A stretch of DNA of 64,000 bases from a virus: positions 1-64,000 of IMG/VR virus record IMGVR_UViG_3300030108_003057; one strand, given 5' to 3'. Of this stretch, positions 2-45,230 are shown piece by piece. Position numbers and translations under genes: made by a program. Positions within the stretch are counted from its first letter, which is position 1; each line of letters begins with the position of its first letter. Below the pieces are notes generated by a model. It saw nothing but the letters and a program-made list of their open reading frames with translations. It ran no database searches and was not told where the DNA came from.

Positions 2-3000
2 GCTTCTAAACCTCATTTTACTCGTTATAATACCACAACAGTAGAAACATATACCAACGACCAAACAACATGGGATAATTGTTTTAGAAATTCAAGCAGG
101 GGTGTTTATACCGCTACTGCACCCGGAGCAGTTAGTACTCCTGAAAGGTCCGGACCATCAACTCATTTAAGATTTGTTGAGTCTCCAGAAATTACTAAAA
201 TTTTAGAAAATGTAGATTCTGTAAATGTTTCTAAAACTATTACTGTTGCTGGTAATTATACAGAATTACGAATTCATGATTTTGAAAAGATTTTAGATGA
301 AAAAATAAAAATGAATGATGACCTAAAAGTTAGGTCAGTATTATATCAACAAAAATTATCTAATGAGTATAATGTTAATTTGCCCGGCAAAGTATCTACG
401 AATAGTACTACTGGTCAATTAGAGTTTGCTGAGTTAGGTGATGAACAAGACCTTAGTAGGCTTCTTGATGATGGAGAAACTATTCGTATAGGTAATTATA
501 TTTATGTAGTAGCATCTGTTGCTTCTAAATCTGCTGGGGTTCAAATTGTAACTATTGATGCTTTTAAAACTTTAGATGCAAAAACATTTACTTCAAGTAG
601 TACCATTCCAGAAACTATTAGTTCTCTTAAAGCACTTAGGAGAGCATGGTCTAGTAAGAAAGATAATCTTATGACTAATGCTCAAATCGATACAGAACTA
701 GATGGTTCGGGTAATATTACAAGAAACGGAATTGCTTTAACTTCTGCTGAATTAGATTATAAAAATTTAGATGTAGTTTCTAGTGCTGGAGACCTTAGAA
801 ATTATAGAATTAATGTAGACAAAGGAGATAAAAACAATCAATACTTTGAATTAAATTATACTGCTTTTAATATTTATCAATACGGTACAGAAAATAGGGG
901 AAACAATATAGTTACTACAAATAGCGCAAAATATATTGCTTCAATTATTAATTATATCGACGGTTCATCATTTATTGATAATACTATATTTGATGGGACT
1001 ATTGAATATATTAAAAGTGAAACTAATGATAGACAAATAAAATATACTATTAGTGGTAGGGACGACTTAGGTAAATTACTATCAAAGGTAAATAATAAAA
1101 AATATTTATATTCTGATGAATTTGTATATACGACTCAACCTCCAACAAGTACTCCAACATATGTTGGGCTTACAATAGATACTAGTGCTAGTGTGGCTAT
1201 GAGTAGAACTTCTTTTGTAGTAAATGATGATGGTTCAGTAGATGGTAGTGGTACAATATATAAAGGTGATTTAGTATTTTATAATGATAATTCTAGTGGT
1301 TCTGATAATTATTTATTTTTAGGTATTGCTAGTGCTGATAGAGTTGGTGATGGAACATTAAGTTTATTGTATGAAACACCTATTGATATTAATACAAGTG
1401 CTACTATAAGTGCTATAACAAATTACGGTTCTGCTAAACATACTAGTGATTTTGCCGGTGGAGAGATTAAATTATATGTGATAAGAGGAACTATTTCGGC
1501 AGGCAAAAGTCTTGCTAGTGATATTACAAAAACAAGCACTCCTACTACATTAAAGGGAAGTGCTGATAAAGGTATAAATTTTTTATCTGGTAATAAAATA
1601 GATATGGCTGATGGTAGTGATGTTTCTGCCTTAACTGGTAGTAAGGCTACTGGCTTTGTTGGTAAAGATGCGGATAACTCTCTAGGTTACAGTATTTCTT
1701 CTACTCATCAAATAGAAACCGATAAAACATCTCCAGAAGCATTTAAGGTATATCAATCTGATGAAACAACATTAGAGAGATTACATACTGTTTCATCTAT
1801 GAGCGAATATGAAATATTAAATATGGAAGACGTTGATGGAGGATTAAATAGAATTACTATTGCTCCAATAATGCCTGTTGTTTTAGGTAGAATAGATACT
1901 AATTCATCGAATAATAAATCAGTTACAAACTCTCAAGGAATTTATTTAGTTAATACTAATGGTTTACCCAAAGGTGGATTTATTCATTTACTTAATTCTG
2001 AAACAGATGGTGGACTACCTATATCCTTTATGGGTAAATTATTAGGGGATGATGTAGATAGTGCTACTGTATATGCTAATTATATTCATAGATTTGGAAC
2101 ACCTATATGGAGATATATAGATTTAGAAACTGGTGAACCCGGCGCAATATTCTATAATGACGAAATAGCAAATAGAATTACTGGTGCTAGTAAAACAGAA
2201 ATTTTTGGTGTAGATGGTTTAGATTTATATAAGGGTGATTTAGGTAGAGTAATGGCTCACGCTACTATTATTAGAATAGAACCAAGTGGAACATACACAG
2301 TGGGTTTTGATAATAACATTACTAATACATATCTAAAAGAAGGTTCACATGAAACAAGAGGACCAATGCCAGCAGTAGGTAGTAACTTTAATGATATGAC
2401 CATAGTTCCTACTGAATTAACTGCTGCTAGAGATGCGACTACTGGTGCTAAAGTATACGAAAGACATTGGGGGTTAAGAACTAGACCAAGAACTGATGAC
2501 TCTTATGAAGTATATGAAATAGATAAATTTTTCTTTGAAGCAAATGACCCTAAAATTCCTAATTTATTTTTGTTTAGTGTGGGTGATATATTACCTGATA
2601 GTAAGAAAAGATTAAATCATATCGGTGGAGTGGCTAATAGAGATTTTGCAGATTATTCTATTATACTTAGAAATTCTGGAGAAAGTATTGCGGGACAGAC
2701 GCATTCAAAGTATAAAGGGTCTTTACAGGCTAAAGAACTAACAGATGATAATTACGCAGCGCAACCTATTAATTCTGCTTCAATTGCTCCAGATGCAATT
2801 AATAGATTTGGATTAATAAGGTTAGTAGAACTAACAATGGACTGGCATTATAATGCAGTAGATATAGAAAATATTACACCGAATGATAAATACCAAAAAA
2901 TACAAACTACACATGGGAAAAAATATAGAAAGAATTCTTTATTATATAGAGCACATGATGTAGATACATTAAAATTAGTTGGAGCAAATACTTACGGTAC

Positions 3001-6000
3001 TCCTGCTATTAGTGCTAAACATCTTATACATAGTTCTTCGGTACATAAAACTAGTGGGGACGGACAACCAGATTTTGTTATTACAGCAAGTACTAACTTA
3101 AGACTACCCAGTAATTATGATGGTGTAACTTATACTTCTAGTGCTATTAATTCTGATGATTATATAATAACTACTACCGCTACTACCGCTTATACTGAAT
3201 TTACATCTGATACTACTAATTCTCATGCTTGTGGTCTATATATTGAATGTGTCGAAACAGGTGATGTTGCTAAAGTGTATAAAGTATTTAATACAGGTGG
3301 GGCGGGTACTGCCCTAAACTTTGAAGTTACTGAGGGAAGTTTCTTAAGTGATATTTCTGCGGGAATGACTTTTAAATTATTACCTGTTGAAGTATGGACA
3401 AGTCCATATAATGCTAATGGTACAAAATTCATAGGTGTTATTTCATCATTTAATAGTGGTACTAATACTATAACTCTTAAAGCCAATGCTAATACAAGTA
3501 ATTTTAGTGAATTAGATGAACTATTCTTTTGTTTCCGAGCAAGAGATTATGAATTTAATAATAATACTGTTAATTTAAATAAGCATCTAATTTCAGGAAA
3601 TATGTTAAAACCATATAATATGGCTAGTTATGACGGTTTACTTGGTGCTACTGGTACTTATAATAATAATCAAATTTATAGATATAATTCTGAACTATTA
3701 CCTAATCAAATTGTTAGTCCACTTAATGTTACTCCCAATACTACTTTTGCTCATCAAGAATTAGAATTTTTAAAAGATACTAATTCCATATTTACTGACC
3801 CATATTTCGATATGGCTAGGAATACTTCTAGAGTTATTAATGACCAATTATTAGATATTAAGAAGTTTCAGACTTTTGCTGTTGAAGTAAATGATGGTAG
3901 TGTAGGAGTACCACAAAGAAGGGTTGCTAACTCCGGTTCTGAGTTTTATTATGGTAGTGCTAGTAATAATGGTACTTCTAGTCATGGTGATTCTACCGGT
4001 TCTAAAATAAGAAATAATTTAATAGGTGTAATTACTAGAGATTATGAACCATTTAAATATGGTAGTGGAGATGTAGGTAAATTAATTGACGCAGTTGCAG
4101 CAGCAGAAATTGATAATTCTTTCTTAAGTGTTAACCCAAATATAGATTATACGGATTATGCGAGCGAGCAATCTAGTTTAAGTTTCGATGGTAATGCTGG
4201 TTTATCAGATTCTATAACTGTATGGGGAGCATTAGAAAGACAAGTAATACTTTCTGGTGATGGTATATATTCTTTATTTCCAGTAAGTAGTCGTGGTGTT
4301 GGAGCACATGAAGTTAGTTATTTATCAGAAGATTTAGGTAAAGGTGCTGCTGCTACTAGTATGACCGCTACAAATAATGATACAGATGGAACTGCTGGAC
4401 TACAATTAGATTATATAGACACTAGTGGTAGTGGTGGACAAGATAGAAGATTACCATTAGCCATAAGTTTTGCTTATGGTATTATGACTAGAGCAAGAAA
4501 TCAAAAGGTAACAAATGGAATGACCTTTCCCGTAGTTGGAAATACATACCCAAGAGGCACTTTAAATTCTATGTTCTTTGCAGCGTATTATGGTGGTGCT
4601 TATACTTCATCTAAATCGGCTACAACTCCACCTGTAATATATTTTGACCACTCCTTTTGTAATGTAAAACATGAATACGATACGCATATTGGATTAACTA
4701 ATGGTGAAGCAGATTCGATGTTTCATGTTACTAATAATATAATAGAAAGAAATGTAAATAGAACAAATATTAGGGGTGCAGAAGTATTCTATAAACCTGT
4801 ATTAAATTTTACTTCTGATGATATAAACACTGGTAAAATATATGCTTCAGTAGATGGAACTAAAAGAGCAAGATTTTCAGTTAAAATTTTAAATACAAAA
4901 GGAGACACATATTTAGGTGATGATACAGATAACTCTCAGACTACGGCTACTCAACATAATCGATGGGTTCACTTTGCACCAAATCTTACTGGTTATTATT
5001 TAGTAAGCGAAGCAGGAACAAATATACATACTAATGCAGCAGTATCTGGTAGAGTAATAAATGATTCTACACCTACTAATATATACAAAGTTATTTCACA
5101 TACTATAAAGAAAGGAATAAGTTCAGTAACAGAAAGTAGTGTAGAATATGAATTTTTTGAACATATTATAGATATTGATAATGTAAGCGGTACTGTGGGT
5201 AATACAGTAAGTCTATCAGGCTACTTTAGAGTTATGCGTCCATCACAAGATACTTTCTATGACTTCTCACCTAAAAATATTGATTTGTTAACTTTATCTA
5301 ATAGATATAGTAAAAAATCTTATGAAGATGCATGTTTTGTAGATGTTAATAGATTTAATAAATATAATGATGATTATGATACTACGGAGTCAATATACAA
5401 TGAAGGTCTTCTATCTATGTATGTTCCGATAGAGGTAGATGCTAGATTAGATAATAACTATGTTGATATTAGAACTTCTAATGAATTCTTCACTTCTGAT
5501 GCTAACTTTAATATGTTAGTAACAGACGGACATAATAAATTTGAATCTAATGTAATTATTGATGTTAAAAGTAGTCCAACTAGAATAACTATGTCTTTAT
5601 CTGATATGAAAAAGATGCATGGTTGTGTATCTTTTGGTGAAACATTTACCATTGATATATTTAATAAACCTAAGATACGAACTAATAGATGTTACTTGGG
5701 AACTAACTTTCATATTGTAGATGAGGCAGAAAAAGTAATTAACGATATTATAGAAAATACTGATATTACATATAATATAACCAGCGATAATGCAAAATAT
5801 TATGAGGCATTTAACGTACAAGGTTTAGATTCATTTACGGCTGCAAATTTTGTTGCATCTCTTAAAAATAGAAAATTAGTTGTTGACGGTAAATTAATTT
5901 CATTAGTTAAAGATATTGAAGATAAAGATTATACAAATATAGAATTTAATGAATTTAGTCCAGATAATAGAGTTGGTGAAATATCTAGAGATAATAACTT

Positions 6001-6625
6001 ATTTGACTTCTATAATCAAATAACAGTATATGGTGATGGTGTTAAGTCAACAGTTAGAGACTCCGCATCCATTAAAAAAGATGGTCTAAAGGAATTGGAA
6101 GAAGTGGATTTAACAATAGTTACAAATGAGGCTTGTAGGCGTAGAGCACTTAATTTATTAAAAATTCATTCCGAAGCAAGTGTCGCAATATCTTTTAAGG
6201 TATTATATGACCAATGCCCATATTTAACACCGGGACAAATTATTAATATTAATTACCCGTCAGAAAAAATACCTAGGGGCGACTATATTGTATTAGAAAT
6301 TAATTATGAAATTGCAGGGTATATGGATATTAAAGTAGGAAAGTATGCTAAAAATCTTACAAATCGAATTGCAGAATTAATAGTGCAAGGTAAAAGAGTA
6401 GATGCGGCATTGAGAGGTGACCGATATAATGTGGTAACACCAACTAATTTATTACAAGAAGATATTGCTTTGAGAGCAGTTAAACTTAAAGTACAGTATA
6501 CTACTGCTAGTAGTGTAGCAGCAAATGTGTTTGGGTTTACTCCTGTATTTGGATTTGATTCAACACTAGGAATAATGCTCCCAACAGGAGAATCAACACA
6601 AACTTTGGAGTATGATTTACTATGA
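2..6625 (+). CDS. Very large virion tail/baseplate-hub-like protein, 5'-truncated (>2200 aa)
   Basis: The frame is open from position 2 to the ATG at 311, so the gene starts outside the window. S/T/G/N-rich composition. The C-terminal 'NQITVYGDG...RDSASIKKDGLKELEEVD...RRRALNLL...LTPGQII...YIVLEINY' resembles phage tail hub/baseplate proteins. Confidence 0.65.
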   Translation, partial: ASKPHFTRYNTTTVETYTNDQTTWDNCFRNSSRGVYTATAPGAVSTPERSGPSTHLRFVESPEITKILENVDSVNVSKTITVAGNYTELRIHDFEKILDEKIKMNDDLKVRSVLYQQKLSNEYNVNLPGKVSTNSTTGQLEFAELGDEQDLSRLLDDGETIRIGNYIYVVASVASKSAGVQIVTIDAFKTLDAKTFTSSSTIPETISSLKALRRAWSSKKDNLMTNAQIDTELDGSGNITRNGIALTSAELDYKNLDVVSSAGDLRNYRINVDKGDKNNQYFELNYTAFNIYQYGTENRGNNIVTTNSAKYIASIINYIDGSSFIDNTIFDGTIEYIKSETNDRQIKYTISGRDDLGKLLSKVNNKKYLYSDEFVYTTQPPTSTPTYVGLTIDTSASVAMSRTSFVVNDDGSVDGSGTIYKGDLVFYNDNSSGSDNYLFLGIASADRVGDGTLSLLYETPIDINTSATISAITNYGSAKHTSDFAGGEIKLYVIRGTISAGKSLASDITKTSTPTTLKGSADKGINFLSGNKIDMADGSDVSALTGSKATGFVGKDADNSLGYSISSTHQIETDKTSPEAFKVYQSDETTLERLHTVSSMSEYEILNMEDVDGGLNRITIAPIMPVVLGRIDTNSSNNKSVTNSQGIYLVNTNGLPKGGFIHLLNSETDGGLPISFMGKLLGDDVDSATVYANYIHRFGTPIWRYIDLETGEPGAIFYNDEIANRITGASKTEIFGVDGLDLYKGDLGRVMAHATIIRIEPSGTYTVGFDNNITNTYLKEGSHETRGPMPAVGSNFNDMTIVPTELTAARDATTGAKVYERHWGLRTRPRTDDSYEVYEIDKFFFEANDPKIPNLFLFSVGDILPDSKKRLNHIGGVANRDFADYSIILRNSGESIAGQTHSKYKGSLQAKELTDDNYAAQPINSASIAPDAINRFGLIRLVELTMDWHYNAVDIENITPNDKYQKIQTTHGKKYRKNSLLYRAHDVDTLKLVGANTYGTPAISAKHLIHSSSVHKTSGDGQPDFVITASTNLRLPSNYDGVTYTSSAINSDDYIITTTATTAYTEFTSDTTNSHACGLYIECVETGDVAKVYKVFNTGGAGTALNFEVTEGSFLSDISAGMTFKLLPVEVWTSPYNANGTKFIGVISSFNSGTNTITLKANANTSNFSELDELFFCFRARDYEFNNNTVNLNKHLISGNMLKPYNMASYDGLLGATGTYNNNQIYRYNSELLPNQIVSPLNVTPNTTFAHQELEFLKDTNSIFTDPYFDMARNTSRVINDQLLDIKKFQTFAVEVNDGSVGVPQRRVANSGSEFYYGSASNNGTSSHGDSTGSKIRNNLIGVITRDYEPFKYGSGDVGKLIDAVAAAEIDNSFLSVNPNIDYTDYASEQSSLSFDGNAGLSDSITVWGALERQVILSGDGIYSLFPVSSRGVGAHEVSYLSEDLGKGAAATSMTATNNDTDGTAGLQLDYIDTSGSGGQDRRLPLAISFAYGIMTRARNQKVTNGMTFPVVGNTYPRGTLNSMFFAAYYGGAYTSSKSATTPPVIYFDHSFCNVKHEYDTHIGLTNGEADSMFHVTNNIIERNVNRTNIRGAEVFYKPVLNFTSDDINTGKIYASVDGTKRARFSVKILNTKGDTYLGDDTDNSQTTATQHNRWVHFAPNLTGYYLVSEAGTNIHTNAAVSGRVINDSTPTNIYKVISHTIKKGISSVTESSVEYEFFEHIIDIDNVSGTVGNTVSLSGYFRVMRPSQDTFYDFSPKNIDLLTLSNRYSKKSYEDACFVDVNRFNKYNDDYDTTESIYNEGLLSMYVPIEVDARLDNNYVDIRTSNEFFTSDANFNMLVTDGHNKFESNVIIDVKSSPTRITMSLSDMKKMHGCVSFGETFTIDIFNKPKIRTNRCYLGTNFHIVDEAEKVINDIIENTDITYNITSDNAKYYEAFNVQGLDSFTAANFVASLKNRKLVVDGKLISLVKDIEDKDYTNIEFNEFSPDNRVGEISRDNNLFDFYNQITVYGDGVKSTVRDSASIKKDGLKELEEVDLTIVTNEACRRRALNLLKIHSEASVAISFKVLYDQCPYLTPGQIININYPSEKIPRGDYIVLEINYEIAGYMDIKVGKYAKNLTNRIAELIVQGKRVDAALRGDRYNVVTPTNLLQEDIALRAVKLKVQYTTASSVAANVFGFTPVFGFDSTLGIMLPTGESTQTLEYDLL

Positions 6626-7008
6626 TAACAGAACTAGCAAGACAAGCACTTAAGGATTTTGTAGAGGATAATTTTGTCGCATATAATGTAGGTACGGGTG
6701 GTGATAGTTCTAACCCAAATGCTACTACATTAGATGCTCCTATTAATGCAGTAAATACAACAAGTACTGGTTTATCAATAACAACTTCTGGAGTATCATC
6801 AATTGATTTCACAATAACTTTAAATCCTAGTACATATTTAGGAGAAGTAATAAGAGAGGTTGGTATCTTTAATTCCGCGAGTATCGTAATTGGTGGTACA
6901 ACCTATGCGGCTGGTAGTATAATGTTAGTAAGAGTTCCTTTCGATGGTATTGGTCCAATTACTTCTAGTGATGATATTGAGTTAGTAGTTTCAGTGGACG
7001 TGGTATAA
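6622..7008 (+). CDS. Putative tail-fibre/baseplate-associated protein
   Basis: 'VGTGG...TTL...GEVIREVGIFN...MLVRVPF' resembles N-terminal domains of tail-fibre/collar proteins; translationally coupled (ATGA) to the upstream gene. Confidence 0.55.
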   Translation: MITELARQALKDFVEDNFVAYNVGTGGDSSNPNATTLDAPINAVNTTSTGLSITTSGVSSIDFTITLNPSTYLGEVIREVGIFNSASIVIGGTTYAAGSIMLVRVPFDGIGPITSSDDIELVVSVDVV

Positions 7009-9437
7009 TGGTAAATTACACAAAGCATCAACATATTTCTACATCAAGTTCTACTAGTAGTACATCAGGTTTAGTAGATGGAACAGATAAAATTCATACT
7101 GGTATTGTTAAGGCTTTAGAATTAGCGGCGGCTGGAACTGCTGTATTAGAATATGGTAGTTCTGTATTTCAACAAACTGCTGGAAGTACTAGAACACAAT
7201 TTGGTGTTAGTGGTGCAATAAAATATATGCGAGAAGGATTAGTTCTTTCTTCTACTCCTACGGCAGTAGAATTAACTGCTGACCCAGATACAACTAATGA
7301 TAGATATGATATGATAGTTATACAATCTTCTGATAATAATTTTGCAGTAAGAGTTGGAACTGCTGCTTCTGTTCCTAGAGTAGCAGATAATTTAACTGCT
7401 GGTGATATTCCGGTAGCGTTAATAAAAGTTTCAGCAGGTGCAAGTTCTACTAAAAATGCAACAACTCGTGAAGTTCAATTATTTGGTTTTGATAAAACAA
7501 GTAATAGCCTAAGTGTAGGTTATTCTGATAGTGGTGTTTATACAGAAACTTTATCTGTTGTAGGGGATGCAGGACATACTGATATTACTGCTAAAATAGC
7601 AGATAAAGATATTAGATTTAAAGGAACTGATGATTCTAGTGCTATTACTGCTTTAACATTAGATATGAGTGAAGCAGGTCTTGCTACATTTAATGGTAAT
7701 ATTAAGGTTGGTGGAAATATAATACAGGCTTCTGATGGTGGAAGCACTATTACTATGGACACTAGTGATAATGTAACAGTTGCAGGTAATGTAACAGTTA
7801 GTGGTGGAACTTTATTTGGCCCTACTGATACTGACCTACTTATTTCATCTGATGGTAATTTATCTTTTAGATTAGATGAAGACGCAGATGAAACATCTCA
7901 ATTATTCCAATTCCAAAATCATGATACTACAATTGTTGCACAAATTACAGAAGGTGGGGAATTGACCACTACTGGAGGGATTGTAGATAATAGTGGAAGT
8001 ATTGGATTTAATAATGGGCAAAACGCATCACTATCAGTTGCAGCCACTACTTCTACTACTGCTGGTAGAGATTTAACAATAGAAGCAGGTTCAACTTCAA
8101 CTAATGGGAATAATATTGATGGTGGAGATTTAATTCTTAAATCAGGTGGTGGTGATGGAACCGGAACTTCTACTATGTCTTTTCATACTAAAGTAAGTGG
8201 TTCAGATACTGCCGCAGAAAGAATGAAGATTAATACAACAGGTGATGTTGAACTTACTGGAGATATTACAGTTGGTGGTGGAGATATAATTGGTCCTACT
8301 GATGGAGCATTAACAATTAAAGCAGATACAGATTTAATATTTAAAATTGATTCAGACAATGATGGAACAGAATCATTTCAATTTCAAAATGGTGGTGGAA
8401 CAGAAATAGCCAGTCTTAGTGAAGCCGGACTACTACAAATAGATGGAGATTTAGATGTAGACGGAACAGGAACTTCTGCAATTGCTGGTAGTTTAAGTGT
8501 TGCTGGAAGTATAAGTGGTGCTGGTGTTGTTACTACTGCTCAACTTGCTATATCCGGTGGCGGTACTGAAACATTAGATATTCATACTGCTGGTAAAACA
8601 ATATCTCAATCAAAATCATGCCATTATTTATTTAGTAGTGGTGGAGGAACTAGCACTGTTACTTTAGAAGCACCAATAGTAGGAACTTTACATTATATTA
8701 AAAATATTAGTAGTGTAAATGTAGCAATAGTACGACATGGTAGTATGCACATTGACGATGGTTCAACTGCACATTCTAAAATTACTGTTGCTCACCAAAT
8801 TGATTTAGGACCGAATGAATCGATTTTATTAAAAGCAGAAGCAGATGATAGTCCACTAAATCAAGGACATTATACTTTTGATTTAGATACTTCTGGAACA
8901 AGTAATGCACCAATAGAACAAGGATTACATTCTATTTGGGTTCCAGCAGAAGCAATTTCACCTAGAAGTAATGCTGGTTGTGCAGATTTAGCAACAACAG
9001 CGGCAGCAACTAGTGGTAGACCAGATATTCGTTCTCTTGCTTTTGATACTTCAACTGATGAACACGCACAATTTACTATTGCTATGCCTAAAATGTGGAA
9101 TGAAGGAACTATTACTGCACAGTTTTATTGGACTAATGCTTCAGCAACATCAGGAACAGTAGCATGGGGATTACAAGGTGTATCTTTATCTAATGACGAC
9201 GCAATAGATACTGCATTTGGTACTGCAATAGTAACTACTGATACTCAAACTGGTACTGCAAAAGATGTTCATATTAGTGCTGCTAGTAGTGCAATAACTA
9301 TTGGAGGGTCTCCAGCCGCAGGTGACTTAACTTGTTTTCAAGTTTATCGTGATGTTTCTGCTGATAACTTAGCGGAAGATGCTTTGTTACTCGGTATTAA
9401 AATATTCTACACAATTAATGCAGCAAATGATGCGTGA
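7008..9437 (+). CDS. Tail fibre / receptor-binding-like protein
   Basis: G/T/S/D-rich with an 'RYDMIV...GDIPVALIKV' anchor region, an internal duplication (GPTD..L.I..D..L.F..D.D.D....FQFQN twice), 'ERMKINTTG' fibre motif and a C-terminal beta-sandwich-like domain. Confidence 0.65.
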   Translation: MVNYTKHQHISTSSSTSSTSGLVDGTDKIHTGIVKALELAAAGTAVLEYGSSVFQQTAGSTRTQFGVSGAIKYMREGLVLSSTPTAVELTADPDTTNDRYDMIVIQSSDNNFAVRVGTAASVPRVADNLTAGDIPVALIKVSAGASSTKNATTREVQLFGFDKTSNSLSVGYSDSGVYTETLSVVGDAGHTDITAKIADKDIRFKGTDDSSAITALTLDMSEAGLATFNGNIKVGGNIIQASDGGSTITMDTSDNVTVAGNVTVSGGTLFGPTDTDLLISSDGNLSFRLDEDADETSQLFQFQNHDTTIVAQITEGGELTTTGGIVDNSGSIGFNNGQNASLSVAATTSTTAGRDLTIEAGSTSTNGNNIDGGDLILKSGGGDGTGTSTMSFHTKVSGSDTAAERMKINTTGDVELTGDITVGGGDIIGPTDGALTIKADTDLIFKIDSDNDGTESFQFQNGGGTEIASLSEAGLLQIDGDLDVDGTGTSAIAGSLSVAGSISGAGVVTTAQLAISGGGTETLDIHTAGKTISQSKSCHYLFSSGGGTSTVTLEAPIVGTLHYIKNISSVNVAIVRHGSMHIDDGSTAHSKITVAHQIDLGPNESILLKAEADDSPLNQGHYTFDLDTSGTSNAPIEQGLHSIWVPAEAISPRSNAGCADLATTAAATSGRPDIRSLAFDTSTDEHAQFTIAMPKMWNEGTITAQFYWTNASATSGTVAWGLQGVSLSNDDAIDTAFGTAIVTTDTQTGTAKDVHISAASSAITIGGSPAAGDLTCFQVYRDVSADNLAEDALLLGIKIFYTINAANDA

Positions 9438-36981: not shown

Positions 36982-37026
36982 TTCCTTTTGAGTTTTTTAC
37001 AGAGAACTCTAACTCTATTTAATAGG

Positions 37027-37108
37027 TGCAGGTAGTAGGATTTGAACCTACGAAACATTATGTAATGGGACTTAAGCCCATCGCCTTTGACCACTCGGCT
37101 ATACCTGC
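37027..37108 (-). tRNA. tRNA-Leu(UAA)
   Basis: Reverse complement GCAGGTATAGCCGAGTGGTCAAAGGCGATGGGCTTAAGTCCCAT...GTAGGTTCAAATCCTACTACCTGCA: acceptor stem, D loop, anticodon TAA, long variable arm, TTC loop; no encoded CCA. Confidence 0.93.
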
Positions 37109-39280: not shown

Positions 39281-39393
39281 TTTATCACCTTTTATATTTC
39301 TTTTACAAAATGTACTAGAAAAAGAGTTTCCTACACATTTTGTTCACTATTCCTATTTAGGAAATCATTTTGCATTAGATAATGCTATTTTCT

Positions 39394-39545
39394 CATACAA
39401 AATGACGTTTTACTACTTTTACTACTTTTACTACCCCCTCTCATATAATAATAATAATATAAATTAAGAATCATATACAAAATGATATATATAATCTATC
39501 TTATAGATATATAGTATATAGTAAAAGTAGTAAAAGTAGAAATAG
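39394..39545. repeat. Inverted tandem repeats around an AT-rich palindrome (origin-like)
   Basis: (TTTTACTAC)x3 at about 39408-39434 and its reverse complement GTAAAAGTAGTAAAAGTAG at 39521-39539, flanking ATACAAAATGA x2 and ATATAATCTATCTTATAGATATAT. Confidence 0.65.
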
Positions 39546-41024
39546 TTACAATATGTAACTGATATTCCAATTTTCTTGGACATAATGATTTACTACGAAT
39601 AGTAAATGTGAGAAGGTGTTACATAATGCTTGAGAAAATGTGCTTTAGAAAAGTAAGCCTCATTATGTAACCGAAAATAGTAATTAGTTATTCAAAATAA
39701 CTATAATAATATTGTTAGTTTGAAAGTTATAGTTTATATAATAACTAGGTCAAACTTACAAATGTAATCTGATTATCATGTGCGAACCAAAATCATGATG
39801 ATTCACATACAATAGGAGAACCCCGAATCAGTATATAAAGCCCTGAAGTCCAAAAAGTCATTATGTATAGGTTATTTCAAATACCTTATTTGTAATACCT
39901 TATCAATAATACCTTATTAAAATACTTACCATATGGTCCTTAACTGTGATTAAGGTAATCCCCAAAATGTAAGGTAGCGGCTAAAGTAAATTTAACTACC
40001 CTAAAGGCGTTTTTTTAAATAAAAACGGTTAAAGTTTACTTTTTTGCAACCATATGGTAATAAATTCTTTTATACCTCGCTGCGGTATTGCGACAAGCCA
40101 CAAGGGTTCATTAAACCGTCTTCGCTATTTAAAATTCTACTTTTACCTGATTAAGAGAGAAGATAGATTAATAAAGATAGAATTTATAAATTTTAATAAA
40201 TCGCAAACCATATGGTCCGGTTTACGTGATACGGATGTATATGGTTTCTGCTGAGAGCAGATACTACTAAATATACTCCGTATTCGATAAACCAATAGAC
40301 CGCAGCGTGCTGTCCTCTCTCCGGGGACCGCATATAAAGTAATTATAATTGCTTTTCCTCTTCAATAGTTTTATTCAATCCAATAAAACAATTTCATCGT
40401 TACCATATGGTCCATGCGTTAGCATACTATGGACCGCGAGGGGGTGAACAGGAATGCTTAGTGTACATTATGATTATGATGATGAAATCATTGAAGATGT
40501 TTGTGAATAAGCATTCTACATCTGTTACCATATGGAACATTATAATATGTCCTCAAAAATAATGGGGTATCCCTCAAGTCCCAAAAAGTCTGCGCCTCCT
40601 AGGAAACACCACTTGCGTTATTTTAAAATTTCTCACTATAAAGAATTTATTAGCAGCGAACCATTTCATTATTTTAAAATCGTTTCCTTGAGCCACACAC
40701 TGTTCAGTTTAGTTATCGGGTACCATATGGTTTGAATTTGCATAATTTGTAAAGCAAATGCGTTTTGAATACTTGGAAAAACCAAACCCCAAAAAATAAA
40801 AAATAAAAAAACAACAGTTTTTGATAACGGAGAACTATTAAAAACTCCGGTAATTAAAGCCGTTTCGACTTGTAAATACTAACTTTTTGGAATACAATCG
40901 TTTTTATTCCAAAGGATGCACCAAAAGCACCTACTTTTGCAGGCACTTTTACCGTCCAATATTTTCTCTAACCATTCTTGATTAATTAGAGGGTCATCCC
41001 TTAATTCTTGAATCAAATCTTTAC

Positions 41025-41234
41025 TCATTCATTCATCTCCTTAAGTCGTTCTTGGATGATTTCTGTAATGCGTTTCATTGATACTACTAATTCCTGTTCA
41101 GAACTAGCAGGTATTCTCAACGATTCCAGAACCCAATTTTGATAACGGTCCTGTTTGAACTTTACGACATATTCAGCCTTCTTAAAAAATTTAAACATGT
41201 CCAACACCCACACAATTATCACACTTATAATCAT
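41025..41234 (-). CDS. Small hypothetical protein
   Basis: ORF track; probable start MFKFFKK. Confidence 0.45.
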   Translation of the reverse strand: MIISVIIVWVLDMFKFFKKAEYVVKFKQDRYQNWVLESLRIPASSEQELVVSMKRITEIIQERLKEMNE

Positions 41235-41264
41235 AACTTAACTCCATATCACAAATTTCACATT

Positions 41265-41486
41265 TCATCTTTTAACACCCACTGAATCATACCTTTTTTG
41301 TGCATCTGTACGCCAATCCCAATTAGGATAACGTTCTTGAAGCCAATTAGGGTTTTCTTGAACCATTTCTCGTCTTTCATGTCTGGCACGTAATTGCTTA
41401 ATTCTGTATCTACGCCATAATGGATTAGACCAACTATAATTACCACCAAATCTTCTTTCATATCTTTGATTAAAACTACTACTCAT
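41265..41486 (-). CDS. Small Arg/Trp-rich hypothetical protein
   Basis: AAGGAAG upstream; preferred over the overlapping 41258..41461 frame. Confidence 0.45.
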   Translation of the reverse strand: MSSSFNQRYERRFGGNYSWSNPLWRRYRIKQLRARHERREMVQENPNWLQERYPNWDWRTDAQKRYDSVGVKR

Positions 41487-41732
41487 CTTTTTCTACTTCC
41501 TTAATTACATTGATTTGACTTTTTTGATGTCGTAGAAAGTCATAACTACGCCTGTTTCTAAATTCACGATTTTTACAGGTTTATTTTGTTCGTACTATGC
41601 CCGAACATTGGCGGGTTGGGTTTTTTTGATGCGGGAAGTTGCCCATTAACTCCCGGCGAATTAGCATAATTATGCTTCTTCGTCTAAACGGAAAGAACTA
41701 CCTTCCGCCTCATCAATGTAATGGACACTCAT

Positions 41733-42335
41733 TTAAGCATCCACTCCATCTTGAGTTTCGACCTTTGTTTCTCCTGAATCAACAGTAAAAGTTAGGTCTG
41801 CATTACCGTCCCATGCACCGGAACGGTGTTTCGACATAAGATTCTGCTTTTCAGCATTCACTTTTGTTGAAATAAAACTATCCCTGTCTTCTATTACTGC
41901 ATAAGGTGACTCTGTATCTCTACCAGATAGTCTCAAAATTGATAGGCGATTAGCACCTTCAATTTCTTGGGCTGAATCGAATACTTGTCCCCAAAAAGTA
42001 GTGGCTACTTCTAGGTGGTTATCCAATACTGCCTGTACTGCTGGAGCAAGGTTACTACCTTTTCCTCTAGTAAAGGGCCAGTTCCCAATAGGGAAGTTTC
42101 TACCGATTCTTTGGATTAATTGCTTTAGTTCTAGTTCAGCACTATCAGCCATTTGTCCAAGGTAATTACCAATAACCATCATATTAAACTCAGCAACGTT
42201 GCGTTGCTTTTTGTCTTCTATGCTGGATATTAGAGGGGTAGTTTCCTCTATCCATTCGTTCACTTTATGCTGATAAACAGCATAGTCTTCTGCGTTCATT
42301 ATTTTTGTGTTTTCTTCTGCACTCATTTTTCTCAC
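41733..42335 (-). CDS. Hypothetical protein, apparent paralog of 42461..42985
   Basis: Shares V..W...EDKK...FNM..I.NY...I...(G/A)R with the divergent neighbour. Confidence 0.7.
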   Translation of the reverse strand: MRKMSAEENTKIMNAEDYAVYQHKVNEWIEETTPLISSIEDKKQRNVAEFNMMVIGNYLGQMADSAELELKQLIQRIGRNFPIGNWPFTRGKGSNLAPAVQAVLDNHLEVATTFWGQVFDSAQEIEGANRLSILRLSGRDTESPYAVIEDRDSFISTKVNAEKQNLMSKHRSGAWDGNADLTFTVDSGETKVETQDGVDA

Positions 42336-42370
42336 TTTCTGCCTGTTAAGGCAATAGTTAGAACAGATTT

Positions 42371-42413
42371 GAGTATATAAGGTACTAGGAGCAAAGCGCC
42401 CGTACCATATGGT
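42371..42413. promoter_or_regulatory. TATA-box plus CCATATGG module, copy 1
   Basis: GAGTATATAAGGTACT...CAAAG...CGTACCATATGGT between divergent genes; near-identical module at 44236. Confidence 0.6.
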
Positions 42414-42460
42414 AGTTAATTTACGAACACTTTGTAATAGTAATTTAAGTACCTCAAAAT

Positions 42461-42985
42461 ATGCAATATATCATGACGCAAGACGCTGATAACACCATAA
42501 CTGAAAAGTGGAACAATTTGGTAGTTAGAGTAACCGCATGGTTATTACTACCTTTTTGGTCCGAGAACGCCGAGGATAAGAAACATGCCTTTAACATGGG
42601 TACAATCCGTAACTATGTAGATTGGGGTAATGAGGGAACCGATGAAGATAAGAAATCTTACATGAGTTCTATCAATGCTCTAGCACGTAGATACAAAGAT
42701 TTGTGTGCTTTACCTTCTTCATCCAAACCAAAAGACCCAACAGTAGGTCAAATTTGGGAGGGAATGATGGAGAACCCAAATAGACTATTGGCTCTATTTA
42801 CTCTAAGAGAAGGTAACATCAAAACGTACAGTGACGCTTCTAAGATTGGACATAGGAGAATTAAGGCTCTTTTGAAAGATGAAGAAGGTCCGATTGATGT
42901 ATCAGAATTTATCAATAATTTTGATGCTTCTTTAGTAGCATATCCAGCAATGAAGGAGGAATCATCAATGGATGAAGAGGCATAA
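42461..42985 (+). CDS. Hypothetical protein, apparent paralog of 41733..42335
   Basis: See the paralog; followed by a terminator-like element. Confidence 0.7.
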   Translation: MQYIMTQDADNTITEKWNNLVVRVTAWLLLPFWSENAEDKKHAFNMGTIRNYVDWGNEGTDEDKKSYMSSINALARRYKDLCALPSSSKPKDPTVGQIWEGMMENPNRLLALFTLREGNIKTYSDASKIGHRRIKALLKDEEGPIDVSEFINNFDASLVAYPAMKEESSMDEEA

Positions 42986-42994
42986 TCTTCATTC

Positions 42995-43041
42995 GGGGTA
43001 GGGGGTAAAACCCCTATCCCACCCCTTCGGGGTTCTTTTTT
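42995..43041 (+). terminator. Double hairpin with T-tract
   Basis: GGGTAGGGG-gtaaaa-CCCCTATCC, then CCCC-TTCG-GGG, then TTCTTTTTT. Confidence 0.7.
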
Positions 43042-44235
43042 ACTTGTTTAGTATAACACTAAAACTCAGAAAGTTCTATTTTAGACATTACATTTGTTAC
43101 ACCAAACTGCGTATAACAAAAGAACCATATGGGTCTACTTCTTCCAGAAGTTAAATTATTCTTGCTCGTCAAACACTATAATCACCCCCGATGCGGCTTG
43201 CTTCTTCCCACTTCGGAGAAGCAATCCATATGGTACGAATAATATATAAGATTTAATATTTAATATAAAAGGAGTAATATTTGTCTTCGATTAGAATGAG
43301 GCAAATATGTACGACTGTTCTTTCTGTATAAATCTTATAAATTAAGAGTCCCCAGACGCTACGCGCGGCAGCCACGCGAGGACTTTCGGTAAAACTTTAG
43401 TAAATATTCATTCAATAAAACATATTTATTAACATAAATATTTCACTAGGATTTATGTGAATGTAATGGTAAACCATTCCATTTCACTAAACCCACAGTT
43501 TTACCACCGTACCATATGGAACATCGTGATATGTCCCCGACGGGGTTTCTCAGCATTAAGATAACATTTCTTAAGTCTTATTAATTATATCACTCGTCGT
43601 ACGGGAAGACGCACTCTGTTGCCATTGGTACGTCATATAATAATAATTATACTTACTAAAAATGTTCCATTTTTCCCTACTGGCAACAAGTCGCGTCCTT
43701 CCCTTCACTCCTCGTTCATCCTGAAAAAGCCTTAAGAACTTTTAAATAAAAGAGCATCGAACCATATGGTAATAATTTGTATTACCTCAAAAATTAAAAA
43801 AAATAAAAAAAAGGCGGGGGAAAGAACAGGTTTTCACCATTTACATCTTTATTAATTTCCAAAACCCCATATTTTTTAGGTGTGCAGTAAGATTATCGCT
43901 GTTACGAGACACTTACAAATTTAATCGTGATACAGTACGTTTGGTTGCGCTTTGTACTTGACGACTACTTTTACTTATCCATAAAGGGCTTGTACTCCCA
44001 ATATTTACCATCTGATTCCGCTAAGAATTGCGCTATTAAATCGCCCACAAACCAACCTTTGATTATTACGTTGTCTTCTCATCGGTGGAGAAACAAATTG
44101 CATTTAAGTCACTATAACTAAACTCAGTAGATAATGCATTATTACTTCACAGTAATTATTCTGCCATGCACTATATCATTTAAGTCCCTATTGGGACACC
44201 CAGCGACTGGCTGATACAGTTTATAGCACAAAATA

Positions 44236-44275
44236 GAGTATATAAGGTACTTACCAAAGTGTCGTACCATATGGT
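44236..44275. promoter_or_regulatory. TATA-box plus CCATATGG module, copy 2
   Basis: GAGTATATAAGGTACT...CAAAG..TCGTACCATATGGT; no adjacent ORF. Confidence 0.55.
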
Positions 44276-44678
44276 GACGAAGGAACCTTAAATTAAGGTA
44301 TTCACTACGTCAGAACATGCGGATATTAACTTGACTCTTTTCCAGCGTTGTAAATTAATTACTAACAGCAACAAAAAAGAGCCGGCGTTAATACCGTTTC
44401 TGTACCATATGGAGTGCTCATTATGAGCAAGAGAAACGTATTTAATTTATTTAAATGAATGTTGAACGTCTCCTCGCGGGCTACTTCATAAAACACATTT
44501 TTCATTAACTTCGTACCATAAATAATCTATTTTATTCGTACCATATGGTTCCGCTTTGCGTGAACTTGTTTTGTTATTTAAATAACGAAATCAAATAACC
44601 TATTTAATATAGTATATTTCAAATAACCATATCTTTATAGGTAACCCGAAACTTTTCTTTACTTGGAGGGAAATTATA

Positions 44679-45035
44679 ATGTACACATTTAATTTTAACT
44701 TAGGCGGCGGGCAAAATACCCCTGCAAATCATGATTTTGAACCAATAGTAACAGCAATAAAACACTTAGTTGAGGACTGGCATTCTTTTTATAACTTATA
44801 CAAAAAATTTGCGCCGCCTCCATTGGAGAACCAAATACAAATACAAGAATGGTTTAATGAAATTAAAAATAAGTTAGATGAACTCATAGAACTATACAAT
44901 GAAATACCAGATTCGCCGGAATTAGCAGATATACGTACTGATAATGACGCTGAAGAGTTATTAAAACACTTTGCCGAGTTAAATAATTTGTTTAATATAC
45001 CGAAAAAAGATACAGATGAACTGATGTACAATTAA
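44679..45035 (+). CDS. Hypothetical helical protein
   Basis: GGAGGG RBS; ORF track. Confidence 0.6.
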   Translation: MYTFNFNLGGGQNTPANHDFEPIVTAIKHLVEDWHSFYNLYKKFAPPPLENQIQIQEWFNEIKNKLDELIELYNEIPDSPELADIRTDNDAEELLKHFAELNNLFNIPKKDTDELMYN

Positions 45036-45230
45036 ATACTCTATTTTATTCACGCTATTTAGAATATTTTAAGTAAACCTTGGAAATGTAATGAAAAAAA
45101 TAAAAAAAATTTTGCTAGTGGCAAAAAAATTTCCGGCCATTTTTTGAAAAAGTAATTTAAATGAAAACATTGTGGTCGCGGGTAATAATAAACTTTATAT
45201 GTATCATAACTGGTGATGCAAATGAAAAAT

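Follow-up and report, generated by a model that had tools for sequence, protein, structure and literature searches.

The DNA analysed here, which we call the window, consists of 64,000 nucleotides (nt) of the IMG/VR viral record IMGVR_UViG_3300030108_003057, positions 1 to 64,000. It carries a strand-switch region, flanked by a minus-strand gene block that ends near 39.3 kb and a plus-strand block that begins at 44679, and within this region the 8-nt palindrome CCATATGG is found in 14 exact copies. In this study, we report the genes and features of the region and the distribution of the palindrome among related viruses. The palindromes probably join self-contained expression cassettes, located where the coding strand switches in a magrovirus, and these cassettes would be shuffled at the joint.

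The 14 copies start at 39929, 40050, 40208, 40403, 40528, 40723 and 42405 in the left and middle parts of the region and at 43125, 43226, 43512, 43762, 44267, 44405 and 44541 in the right part. They are confined to 39929-44548, with zero copies elsewhere in the 64 kb, and dinucleotide shuffles of the window gave a mean of 0.66 and a maximum of 4 copies. An earlier note on this DNA, made from the letters alone, had reported both the count and the confinement and had proposed to compare the count with expectation; both statements stand, and the palindrome is enriched. Its inner hexamer, CATATG, has 39 copies elsewhere in the window. One-mismatch variants of CCATATGG are absent from the region and number 18 outside it, which is approximately the chance level. 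In nine of the 14 copies the palindrome is extended to A-CCATATGG-T, that is, the 10-letter palindrome ACCATATGGT. The joint reads ACC-ATAT-GGT, an ATAT hinge between hairpins that begin with GGT and end with ACC.

It must be noted that the region is not the stretch of about 4 kb of non-coding DNA that the earlier note had described. Five open reading frames (ORFs), all conserved in relatives, occupy 40879-42985, four of them on the minus strand (40879-42335) and one on the plus strand (42461/42473-42985), and two micro-ORFs with ribosome-binding sites are also present. The proposal that the motif marks off discrete units does hold. Intervals between neighbouring palindromes are shorter than 300 nt in 10 of 13 cases in the window versus 28% in relatives. 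As read from the sequence, the order of a gene cassette is palindrome, hairpin, YYATATA box, gene, terminator hairpin, inverted hairpin and palindrome, and this full layout is seen in three units of the window: 40723-42412 (minus strand), 42405-43132 (plus strand) and 43762-44274 (minus strand), the last without an ORF.

The first of these, the four-gene cassette, starts at palindrome 42405 and ends at palindrome 40723. On its promoter side there are a hairpin with a GCTTTG loop (42381-42406) and a TATA box (42373-42380), followed by genes at 41733-42326 (197 amino acids, aa, family 1), 41265-41486 (73 aa), 41025-41198/41234 (57-69 aa, family 2) and 40879-41028 (49 aa). On its 3' side, a hairpin at 40826-40848, T-runs at about 40780-40806 and a hairpin at about 40735-40759 precede palindrome 40723. 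The one-gene cassette on the opposite strand shares palindrome 42405 and has a hairpin at 42411-42453 with ACTTTG in its loop, a TATA-like TAATTTAAG at 42441-42449, a gene at 42473-42985 (170 aa, a putative distant relative of family 1), and GC-rich hairpins and a T-run at about 43036-43041 on the 3' side. The 170-aa protein matched family 1 with 15-24 bits in hidden Markov model (HMM) searches and with a probability of 58% in hhalign, a similarity not supported by BLASTP alone; that the 197-aa and 170-aa proteins are distant paralogs, divergent across palindrome 42405, is thus weakly supported.

The third unit begins with palindrome 44267, a hairpin at 44246-44268 (ACTTTG loop) and a TATA box at 44238-44245, and ends with three T-runs at 43789-43812, a hairpin at 43768-43786 and palindrome 43762. 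Its interior of about 420 nt contains no ORF longer than 64 codons on either strand, and we infer a candidate non-coding RNA. A similar ORF-less stretch after a TATA box, likewise a candidate long non-coding RNA, was observed at about 7340-7650 (plus strand) of the related locus L021. The last palindrome, at 44541, is followed by a hairpin with a GCTTTG loop (44547-44565) and by the gene that opens the plus-strand block (44679-45035, 118 aa); this gene is kept behind the last palindrome in loci L020 and L022. A-rich plus-strand runs of the form AAAAAATAAAAAATAAAAAAA were found at 40786-40806, 43788-43810 and 45096-45112; two of them are the putative minus-strand T-run terminators of cassettes, and the third trails the gene at 44679-45035.

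The remaining units are short. To the left of the first palindrome, three tandem 14-nt repeats with ATACC-TTAT (39867-39918, plus strand) present the same arrangement of ACC plus a TATA-like sequence as is seen after the hairpins, and would be candidate rightward promoters for the left array. This array consists of an ORF-less cassette of 129 nt (39929-40057, plus strand; z -2.0/-3.3 in folding against shuffled sequences), an ORF-less cassette of 166 nt (40050-40215; z -2.4/-2.6), a strongly folded ORF-less cassette of 203 nt (40208-40410; minimum free energy -65.9 kcal/mol, z -8.2, none of 200 shuffles as good), a micro-ORF cassette (40403-40535, plus strand) and a further cassette of 203 nt (40528-40730), whose first hairpin is common to L001 683. 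The micro-ORF cassette contains a hairpin (40409-40435), a GAGGGGG ribosome-binding site and an ORF of 18 codons (40454-40510, MLSVHYDYDDEIIEDVCE). In the right part, a minus-strand micro-ORF cassette at 43125-43233 (z -4.5/-3.7) has palindrome 43226-43233, a hairpin, GGGGGTGA and an ORF at 43156-43176. It is followed by two strongly folded cassettes at 43226-43519 (294 nt) and 43512-43769 (258 nt), with z values of -7.7 and -4.9/-4.2, and, beyond the ORF-less unit described above, by two short folded ones at 44267-44412 (146 nt, z -4.7/-5.9) and 44405-44548 (144 nt, z -1.8/-3.1).

Nearly all units between motifs fold better than their shuffles, with z from about -2 to -8.5, versus an average of -0.3 for coding controls. 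The earlier note had called these units rich in inverted repeats and had suggested folding them against shuffled controls; its description is borne out, and many units are strongly folded. In the predicted folds each unit is closed by the pairing of its two palindromes, which is a trivial consequence of the palindrome. Rfam gave no matches in 39300-44750 at E values up to 1. An array of tRNAs or of other known RNAs was discarded, ARAGORN together with the Rfam gathering cut-off having given a single match in the window, tRNA-Leu at 37025-37108.

With respect to the identity of the virus, the PolB of the window is closest to halovirus polymerases in the phage collection, and the genome fits a magrovirus, a tailed virus of Marine Group II archaea. 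Protein searches with the 800-aa, 174-aa and 200-aa proteins against IMG/VR, the phage collection and GTDB genomes found no relatives. A metagenome scan yielded two short contigs, L001 (9 copies in 3.3 kb) and L002 (2 copies), and six IMG/VR contigs with irregular arrays were recovered by a DNA pattern of three spaced copies, which also matched unrelated coding repeats of a periodic kind. With the twin-hairpin form CAAAGT-N3-7-CCATATGG-N3-7-ACTTTG, 82 stretches were retrieved, belonging to about 70 IMG/VR contigs. We scanned in full eight related contigs (47-103 kb), four of them rated complete by CheckV. All their palindromes but one were located within a single stretch of 3-6 kb, the exception being at the very end of contig G004, and a reversed control word occurred 0-2 times. 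The array stretch is a divergent strand switch in the five regions in which ORFs were mapped. In relation to the window, the PolB proteins of G001 and G003 are unsplit and 59-60% identical, and those of G002 and G004 are split and 43% identical. A split PolB is a trait of magrovirus group B (PMC5434244), and sequence comparison shows the architecture to be conserved across at least two magrovirus groups. The conservation in related viruses on which the earlier note had made its proposal depend is thus found: the arrays are kept and, as described below, their stems covary. Arrays in cellular genomes were also sought and discarded, since the loci returned from 99 pattern matches were periodic tandem repeats, mostly bacterial and none magrovirus-like; no Poseidoniales genome was among the matches of the three-copy pattern in prokaryote genomes.

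The pooled set comprised 537 copies of the palindrome from 87 loci, with A at position -1 in 89% and T at position +1 in 89%. Array interiors contained 516 perfect copies versus 116 with one mismatch, where 102.7 of the latter were expected from the flanks. The palindrome is perfect or absent, with one-mismatch forms not in excess, and the same all-or-none pattern was seen in the set of nine loci. For avoidance of the motif outside the region the power was too low (about 4-5 copies expected, 1 seen).

The palindrome reaches into its flanking GGT...ACC hairpins: its CC supplies the last pairs of one and its GG the first pairs of the other. The commonest of these hairpins is 19-32 nt long with an ACTTTG-type tip. 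Of 516 unique sites, 198 carried this commonest hairpin at both flanks and 185 at a single flank, and 133 lacked it. Watson-Crick pairs at the variable stem positions 4-7 numbered 1017 of 2048, compared with 567 +/- 19 when the arms were permuted; the values for positions 5-7 were 652 of 1536 versus 402 +/- 16, and those for the nine-locus set 83 of 128 versus 41 +/- 5. The hairpin stems therefore covary, their sequence varying from copy to copy with complementarity kept. One case of compensatory change is the hairpin at 40409-40435, GGTCCAT/ATGGACC, which is GGTTCAT/ATGAACC at L022 8613. The polarity of the loop is absolute: within 16 nt outward of the motif, ACTTTG was found 30 times and CAAAGT never. 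Two hairpin families recur strongly. The earlier note had placed a stem-loop beside many of the palindromes. Under strict criteria, an anchored hairpin was present on 34 of 196 sides in the first nine loci versus 9% of control GGT positions; the flanking hairpin is frequent, not universal.

A YYATATA sequence follows the ACC of the hairpin directly (A3 in 81%, T4 in 74% and A5 in 71%). In small genes the start codon lies at a modal distance of 28 nt after the hairpin, which is the geometry of leaderless archaeal mRNAs; in family 1 (about 175 aa), the commonest cargo gene, it lies 62-81 nt after the hairpin. Seventy of 80 family-1 genes had a palindrome within 260 nt upstream, with a CTTTG hairpin in 61 of them, and 77 of 80 had one within 400 nt downstream; in 70 of these 77 the inverted CAAAG hairpin comes before it. 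The stop codon is usually followed by a GC-rich hairpin, and 19 genes have a run of at least five T. The suggested tie between the site and the promoters of the region's genes is supported by the order palindrome, hairpin, YYATATA box and gene in 61 of 80 family-1 genes. Given that the ends of the cassette are symmetric, a gene cassette would work in either orientation. A start of transcription at the palindrome itself, with the TATA sequence upstream of it (GTATATAAGGTAC at 42373 and 44238), was dropped, as the main direction only, because the TATA sequence is directly after the hairpin on the gene side, the mode to the ATG is 28 nt and the genes are on that side.

Units were compared among loci by BLAST. 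The unit at 39928-40057 of the window corresponds in full to L001 451-328, inverted and with 83% identity (328-451 as a whole unit), its ends being 0-1 nt from palindromes. The window unit at 40050 belongs to the left array, and its start is found again on the right in L001, after the right-hand palindrome of the right array there (its first 28 nt at L001 3224-3253); unit L001 443 recurs in the right array of L002. A gene block of 2 kb (41031-43132) can be aligned with L001 and L002 up to palindrome 43125-43132, where the homology stops exactly. Between L020 and L022, whose flanks are about 85% identical, a 1-kb gene cassette and two micro-ORF cassettes are inverted, and collinear homology restarts exactly at a palindrome (L020 10241, L022 9713). 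Breakpoints of homology were thus 0-2 nt from a palindrome in the comparisons of the window with L001 and L002 and of L020 with L022, inversions and one relocation included. These alignments show that related genomes differ in whole cassettes that were inverted, relocated, gained or lost, the breakpoints lying at the palindrome.

The micro-ORFs form a family of 6-18 codons located behind a palindrome, a hairpin and a GGAGG-type ribosome-binding site. The minus-strand member at 43156-43176 reads GTG-TTT-GAC-GAG-CAA-GAA-TAA, that is, (M)FDEQE. Peptides of relatives include MFDDDE, MFFDDDE, MFDCDD, MFDDCE, MFDEED, MFDDEEN, MKYTSDEDDE and MIYNSDEDDE, all with an aromatic residue and then an acidic run, a pattern of which (M)FDEQE and the plus-strand peptide at 40454-40510 are the members in the window. 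The corresponding loci are L020 9554-9849, L022 8518-8720, L021 5126-5355 and about 6889-6909, and L024 6640-6751 and 7975-8072. Synonymous differences in the acidic codons suggest that the micro-peptides may be under selection at the protein level. In three relatives a gene of the same orientation precedes the micro-ORF, and one micro-ORF overlaps that gene's stop codon. RNAalifold on a MAFFT alignment of the micro-ORF leaders, which is not structure-aware, predicted no pairs. Some loci have short cassettes with other recurrent sequences. In L024 (5219-8200), a G-rich GGGAGGGNGGG, which has no start codon behind it, lies in 8 or 9 of them about 40-50 nt after the palindrome. Many in G004 (locus L023, 4986-10931) and L005 (4586-7010) begin with GGTAGTGT(A/T)AAG; at their end, about 15-25 nt ahead of the following palindrome, there is a small hairpin whose loop is CTTAATG or CTAAGCG. 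Judged from sequence, these GGTAGTGT units are a putative lineage-specific family of paralogous short units.

Two protein families reside in most arrays and are candidates for recognising the palindrome. Family 1, which includes the product of 41733-42326, was found in 57 of 75 loci, often as two paralogs, and family 2 (41025-41234 in the window) in 42 of 75. The family-1 model is all-alpha, with a predicted local distance difference test score (pLDDT) of 83.5, and the AlphaFold model of family 2 is beta-beta-helix (pLDDT 76). Neither family gave a PDB, Pfam or Atlas match. The family-1 protein was consequently dropped as a candidate enzyme, having an all-alpha model and no lead in these three resources, and so was the guess that the 57-69 aa family 2 is ribbon-helix-helix, in view of its beta-beta-helix model without PDB or Pfam match. 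In addition, the large ORF open at the start of the window (2-6625, plus strand, more than 2200 aa) had no Pfam match at E below 0.01.

As for the mechanism by which cassettes would be shuffled, the joint may act as a crossover point for cassette exchange, in which a unit would be excised and inserted again or would be inverted between any two copies. Copies of a palindromic site are always direct and inverted repeats of one another at once. Neighbouring units may be insulated by the flanking hairpins. The exchange could proceed by general recombination, by template switching at hairpins or by a sequence-specific enzyme, and the all-or-none conservation leans towards specific recognition. A perfect site maintained across viruses with 43%-identical polymerases suggests that the site is either recognised specifically or regenerated by the mechanism at work; insertion into the ATAT hinge would be one way of regenerating it. 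On this basis we tentatively raise the possibility, which we do not hold to be the likely one, of a dedicated, structure-guided insertion system that mobilises the cassettes, an integron- or transposon-like gene capture by a new kind of enzyme. Units with GGT...ACC hairpins at their ends would be excised and then placed into the ATAT hinge of any joint, in either orientation, and each insertion would regenerate two perfect ACC-ATAT-GGT joints. Such a system would explain the all-or-none sites, the polar CTTTG tips, the inverted ends of gene cassettes and the exact breakpoints. The enzyme could be one of the two array-resident protein families or a host factor.

Several points weigh against cassettes joined and shuffled at the palindrome. 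The canonical CTTTG hairpin is absent at 9 of the 14 sites of the window. The palindrome is the only sequence common to different cassettes, so that breakpoints would map there in any case, and their mapping alone is no proof that the site catalyses exchange. Its 10 base pairs (bp) are short for homologous recombination. Pfam detected no tyrosine recombinase (PF00589), serine recombinase (PF00239) or Hjc in five related contigs, a complete 96-kb genome included, the ORFs of the window being scanned only partly and the sensitivity of Pfam being limited on such divergent proteins; the enzyme-driven version consequently lacks its enzyme. Finally, all the support comes from comparative sequence.

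Neither of the mechanisms advanced in the earlier note, a processing motif of small RNAs or operator, origin or packaging sites, is shown by these results. In an operator or boundary model, a small dimeric protein of the virus or the host would bind ACCATATGGT and co-regulate early or accessory promoters by activation, repression or insulation, and the rearrangements would be a by-product of the repeated sequence. The perfect palindrome agrees with this model, as do the fixed module upstream of the TATA box, measured from the hairpin end in 61 of 80 family-1 genes, the palindrome between the divergent 197-aa and 170-aa genes of the window and the small protein of family 2 encoded within the arrays of 42 of 75 loci. 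Nevertheless, operator sets usually show graded matches, and here degenerate sites are not in excess (116 with one mismatch versus 103 expected, beside 516 perfect). The element is also found, inverted, at terminator ends and between ORF-less units, the distance from the palindrome to the loop motif varies by 3-7 nt, and covarying stems are not needed for recognition of double-stranded DNA. The model of the 57-aa protein, beta-beta-helix without a match to a DNA-binding fold or to Pfam, lends it no help either. The operator fits poorly, and we consider it unlikely.

If the palindromes instead punctuated RNA, the arrays would be transcribed as long precursors in which CCAUAUGG, or a duplex of neighbouring copies, is the processing site, and folded small RNAs and micro-ORF messages would be released, in parallel with the RNase III sites between T7 early genes and the processing stems of archaeal rRNA. 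The units do fold far better than shuffles, with flanking palindromes closing them in the predicted folds, but such a closing stem is only what any palindrome would give. In micro-ORF units no TATA box separates the hairpin from the ribosome-binding site, and in the window and three relatives these units are downstream of a promoter-like element or gene in the same orientation, a position that makes it probable that palindrome and hairpin are transcribed there. For most genes, however, palindrome and hairpin are upstream of the TATA box, outside the predicted transcript. In addition, the perfect duplex has no bulge-helix-bulge motif for the archaeal splicing endonuclease, the stems have no bias of G.U over A.C (20 versus 12, p 0.22), that is, no wobble strand bias, and no Rfam family was matched even at E up to 1. 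RNA punctuation is, in our judgement, quite unlikely.

A platform for origin, partition or packaging, with the palindromes binding an initiator, a centromere-binding protein or terminase, is very improbable: two sub-arrays do lie at the strand switch near the minimum of cumulative GC skew and adjoin an AT-rich element flanked by 24-nt inverted repeats, but the copies are the ends of cassettes among genes over 3-6 kb, irregularly spaced (median 470 nt), close relatives differ freely in how many there are and in which order, the change of skew falls together with the coding-strand switch, and the adjoining element at 39410-39542 is a better origin candidate. This element, to the left of the array, has 24-nt inverted repeats (TTACTACTTTTACTACTTTTACTA, 96% complementary) around a very AT-rich core of 85 nt. 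In L021 (8730-9030), comparable AT-rich TATAGTATA repeats plus a (CT)n run are located beside the array. The element at 39410-39542 is a candidate replication origin, and an origin or packaging role is more plausibly assigned to it than to the palindromes.

Cassettes joined at the palindrome resemble most closely the PeSL (promoter-early stem-loop) cassettes of the hyperplastic regions of T4-type phages (Arbiol et al. 2010, PMC2839356; Comeau et al. 2014, PMC4122927), a resemblance which we take as one of kind and not of descent. Both are composite elements of stem-loop and promoter that flank small, mostly orphan genes in one plastic region, and in both each unit appears to bring its own promoter and terminator, and related genomes differ by insertion, deletion or replacement of units with crossovers inside the element. 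The promoter there is of the sigma-70 type, whereas here it is a TATA-type box in an archaeal virus, and homology to the T4-type element is not seen. The invariant 10-bp palindrome joint is absent from PeSLs and found only here, together with twin symmetric hairpins, covarying stems and a polar CTTTG tip. Inversions are common here, and many units are ORF-less or encode peptides of 6-18 residues. The promoter, terminator and mini-circle activities of PeSLs were measured, whereas here activities are deduced from TATA geometry, T-runs and hairpins. Among archaeal tailed viruses, the haloarchaeal myovirus HGTV-1 has a TATA-like box and an inverted repeat before most left-arm ORFs, according to the summary in PMC3950731, and its authors, too, drew the comparison with PeSLs (Sencilo et al. 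2013, as summarised there). In that summary nothing is said of an invariant palindrome, twin hairpins or cassette inversion.

Integrons and their attC sites offer a further likeness: arrays of unrelated small units, a site made of a short conserved core and a hairpin conserved in structure but not in sequence, and whole-unit gain, loss and reordering exactly at the site. Here, too, the core at the cassette ends is invariant and the stems covary (1017 of 2048 pairs versus 567 +/- 19, as given above). Integron cassettes, however, are promoterless and uni-directional and are inserted next to attI by the tyrosine recombinase IntI, whereas the units described here have putative promoters of their own, both orientations and a core that is a perfect palindrome, and PF00589 is absent from the five related contigs. 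Shufflons and other multiple-inversion systems (R64 Rci/sfx, Min, Hin/Gin) similarly have several short sites in a small region, with inversion of the segments between them. They differ in having a dedicated recombinase and asymmetric sites and in switching the 3' ends of one gene, whereas here whole expression units would move, and neither PF00239 nor PF00589 was detected in the related contigs scanned.

In a small set of magrovirus papers, nothing was said of palindromes, promoters, hairpins or cassettes. Magroviruses belong to the most abundant viruses of the surface ocean and, to our knowledge, nothing is known of how their accessory genes are regulated and diversified. The element described here is a precise and searchable signature of the magrovirus plastic region, one pattern of 20 bases being sufficient to find about 70 contigs, and through it sequence by itself would be enough to define promoters and the limits of units in uncultured archaeal viruses. 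As candidates for early effectors of host takeover, we point to the short folded cassettes and to the conserved acidic micro-peptides. The modular shuffling of promoter-carrying cassettes, described for T4-type phages, would thus extend to archaeal viruses, with an invariant palindrome and twin hairpins as additions that are indicative of specific recognition. A dedicated enzyme, should there be one, would represent a new gene-capture system.

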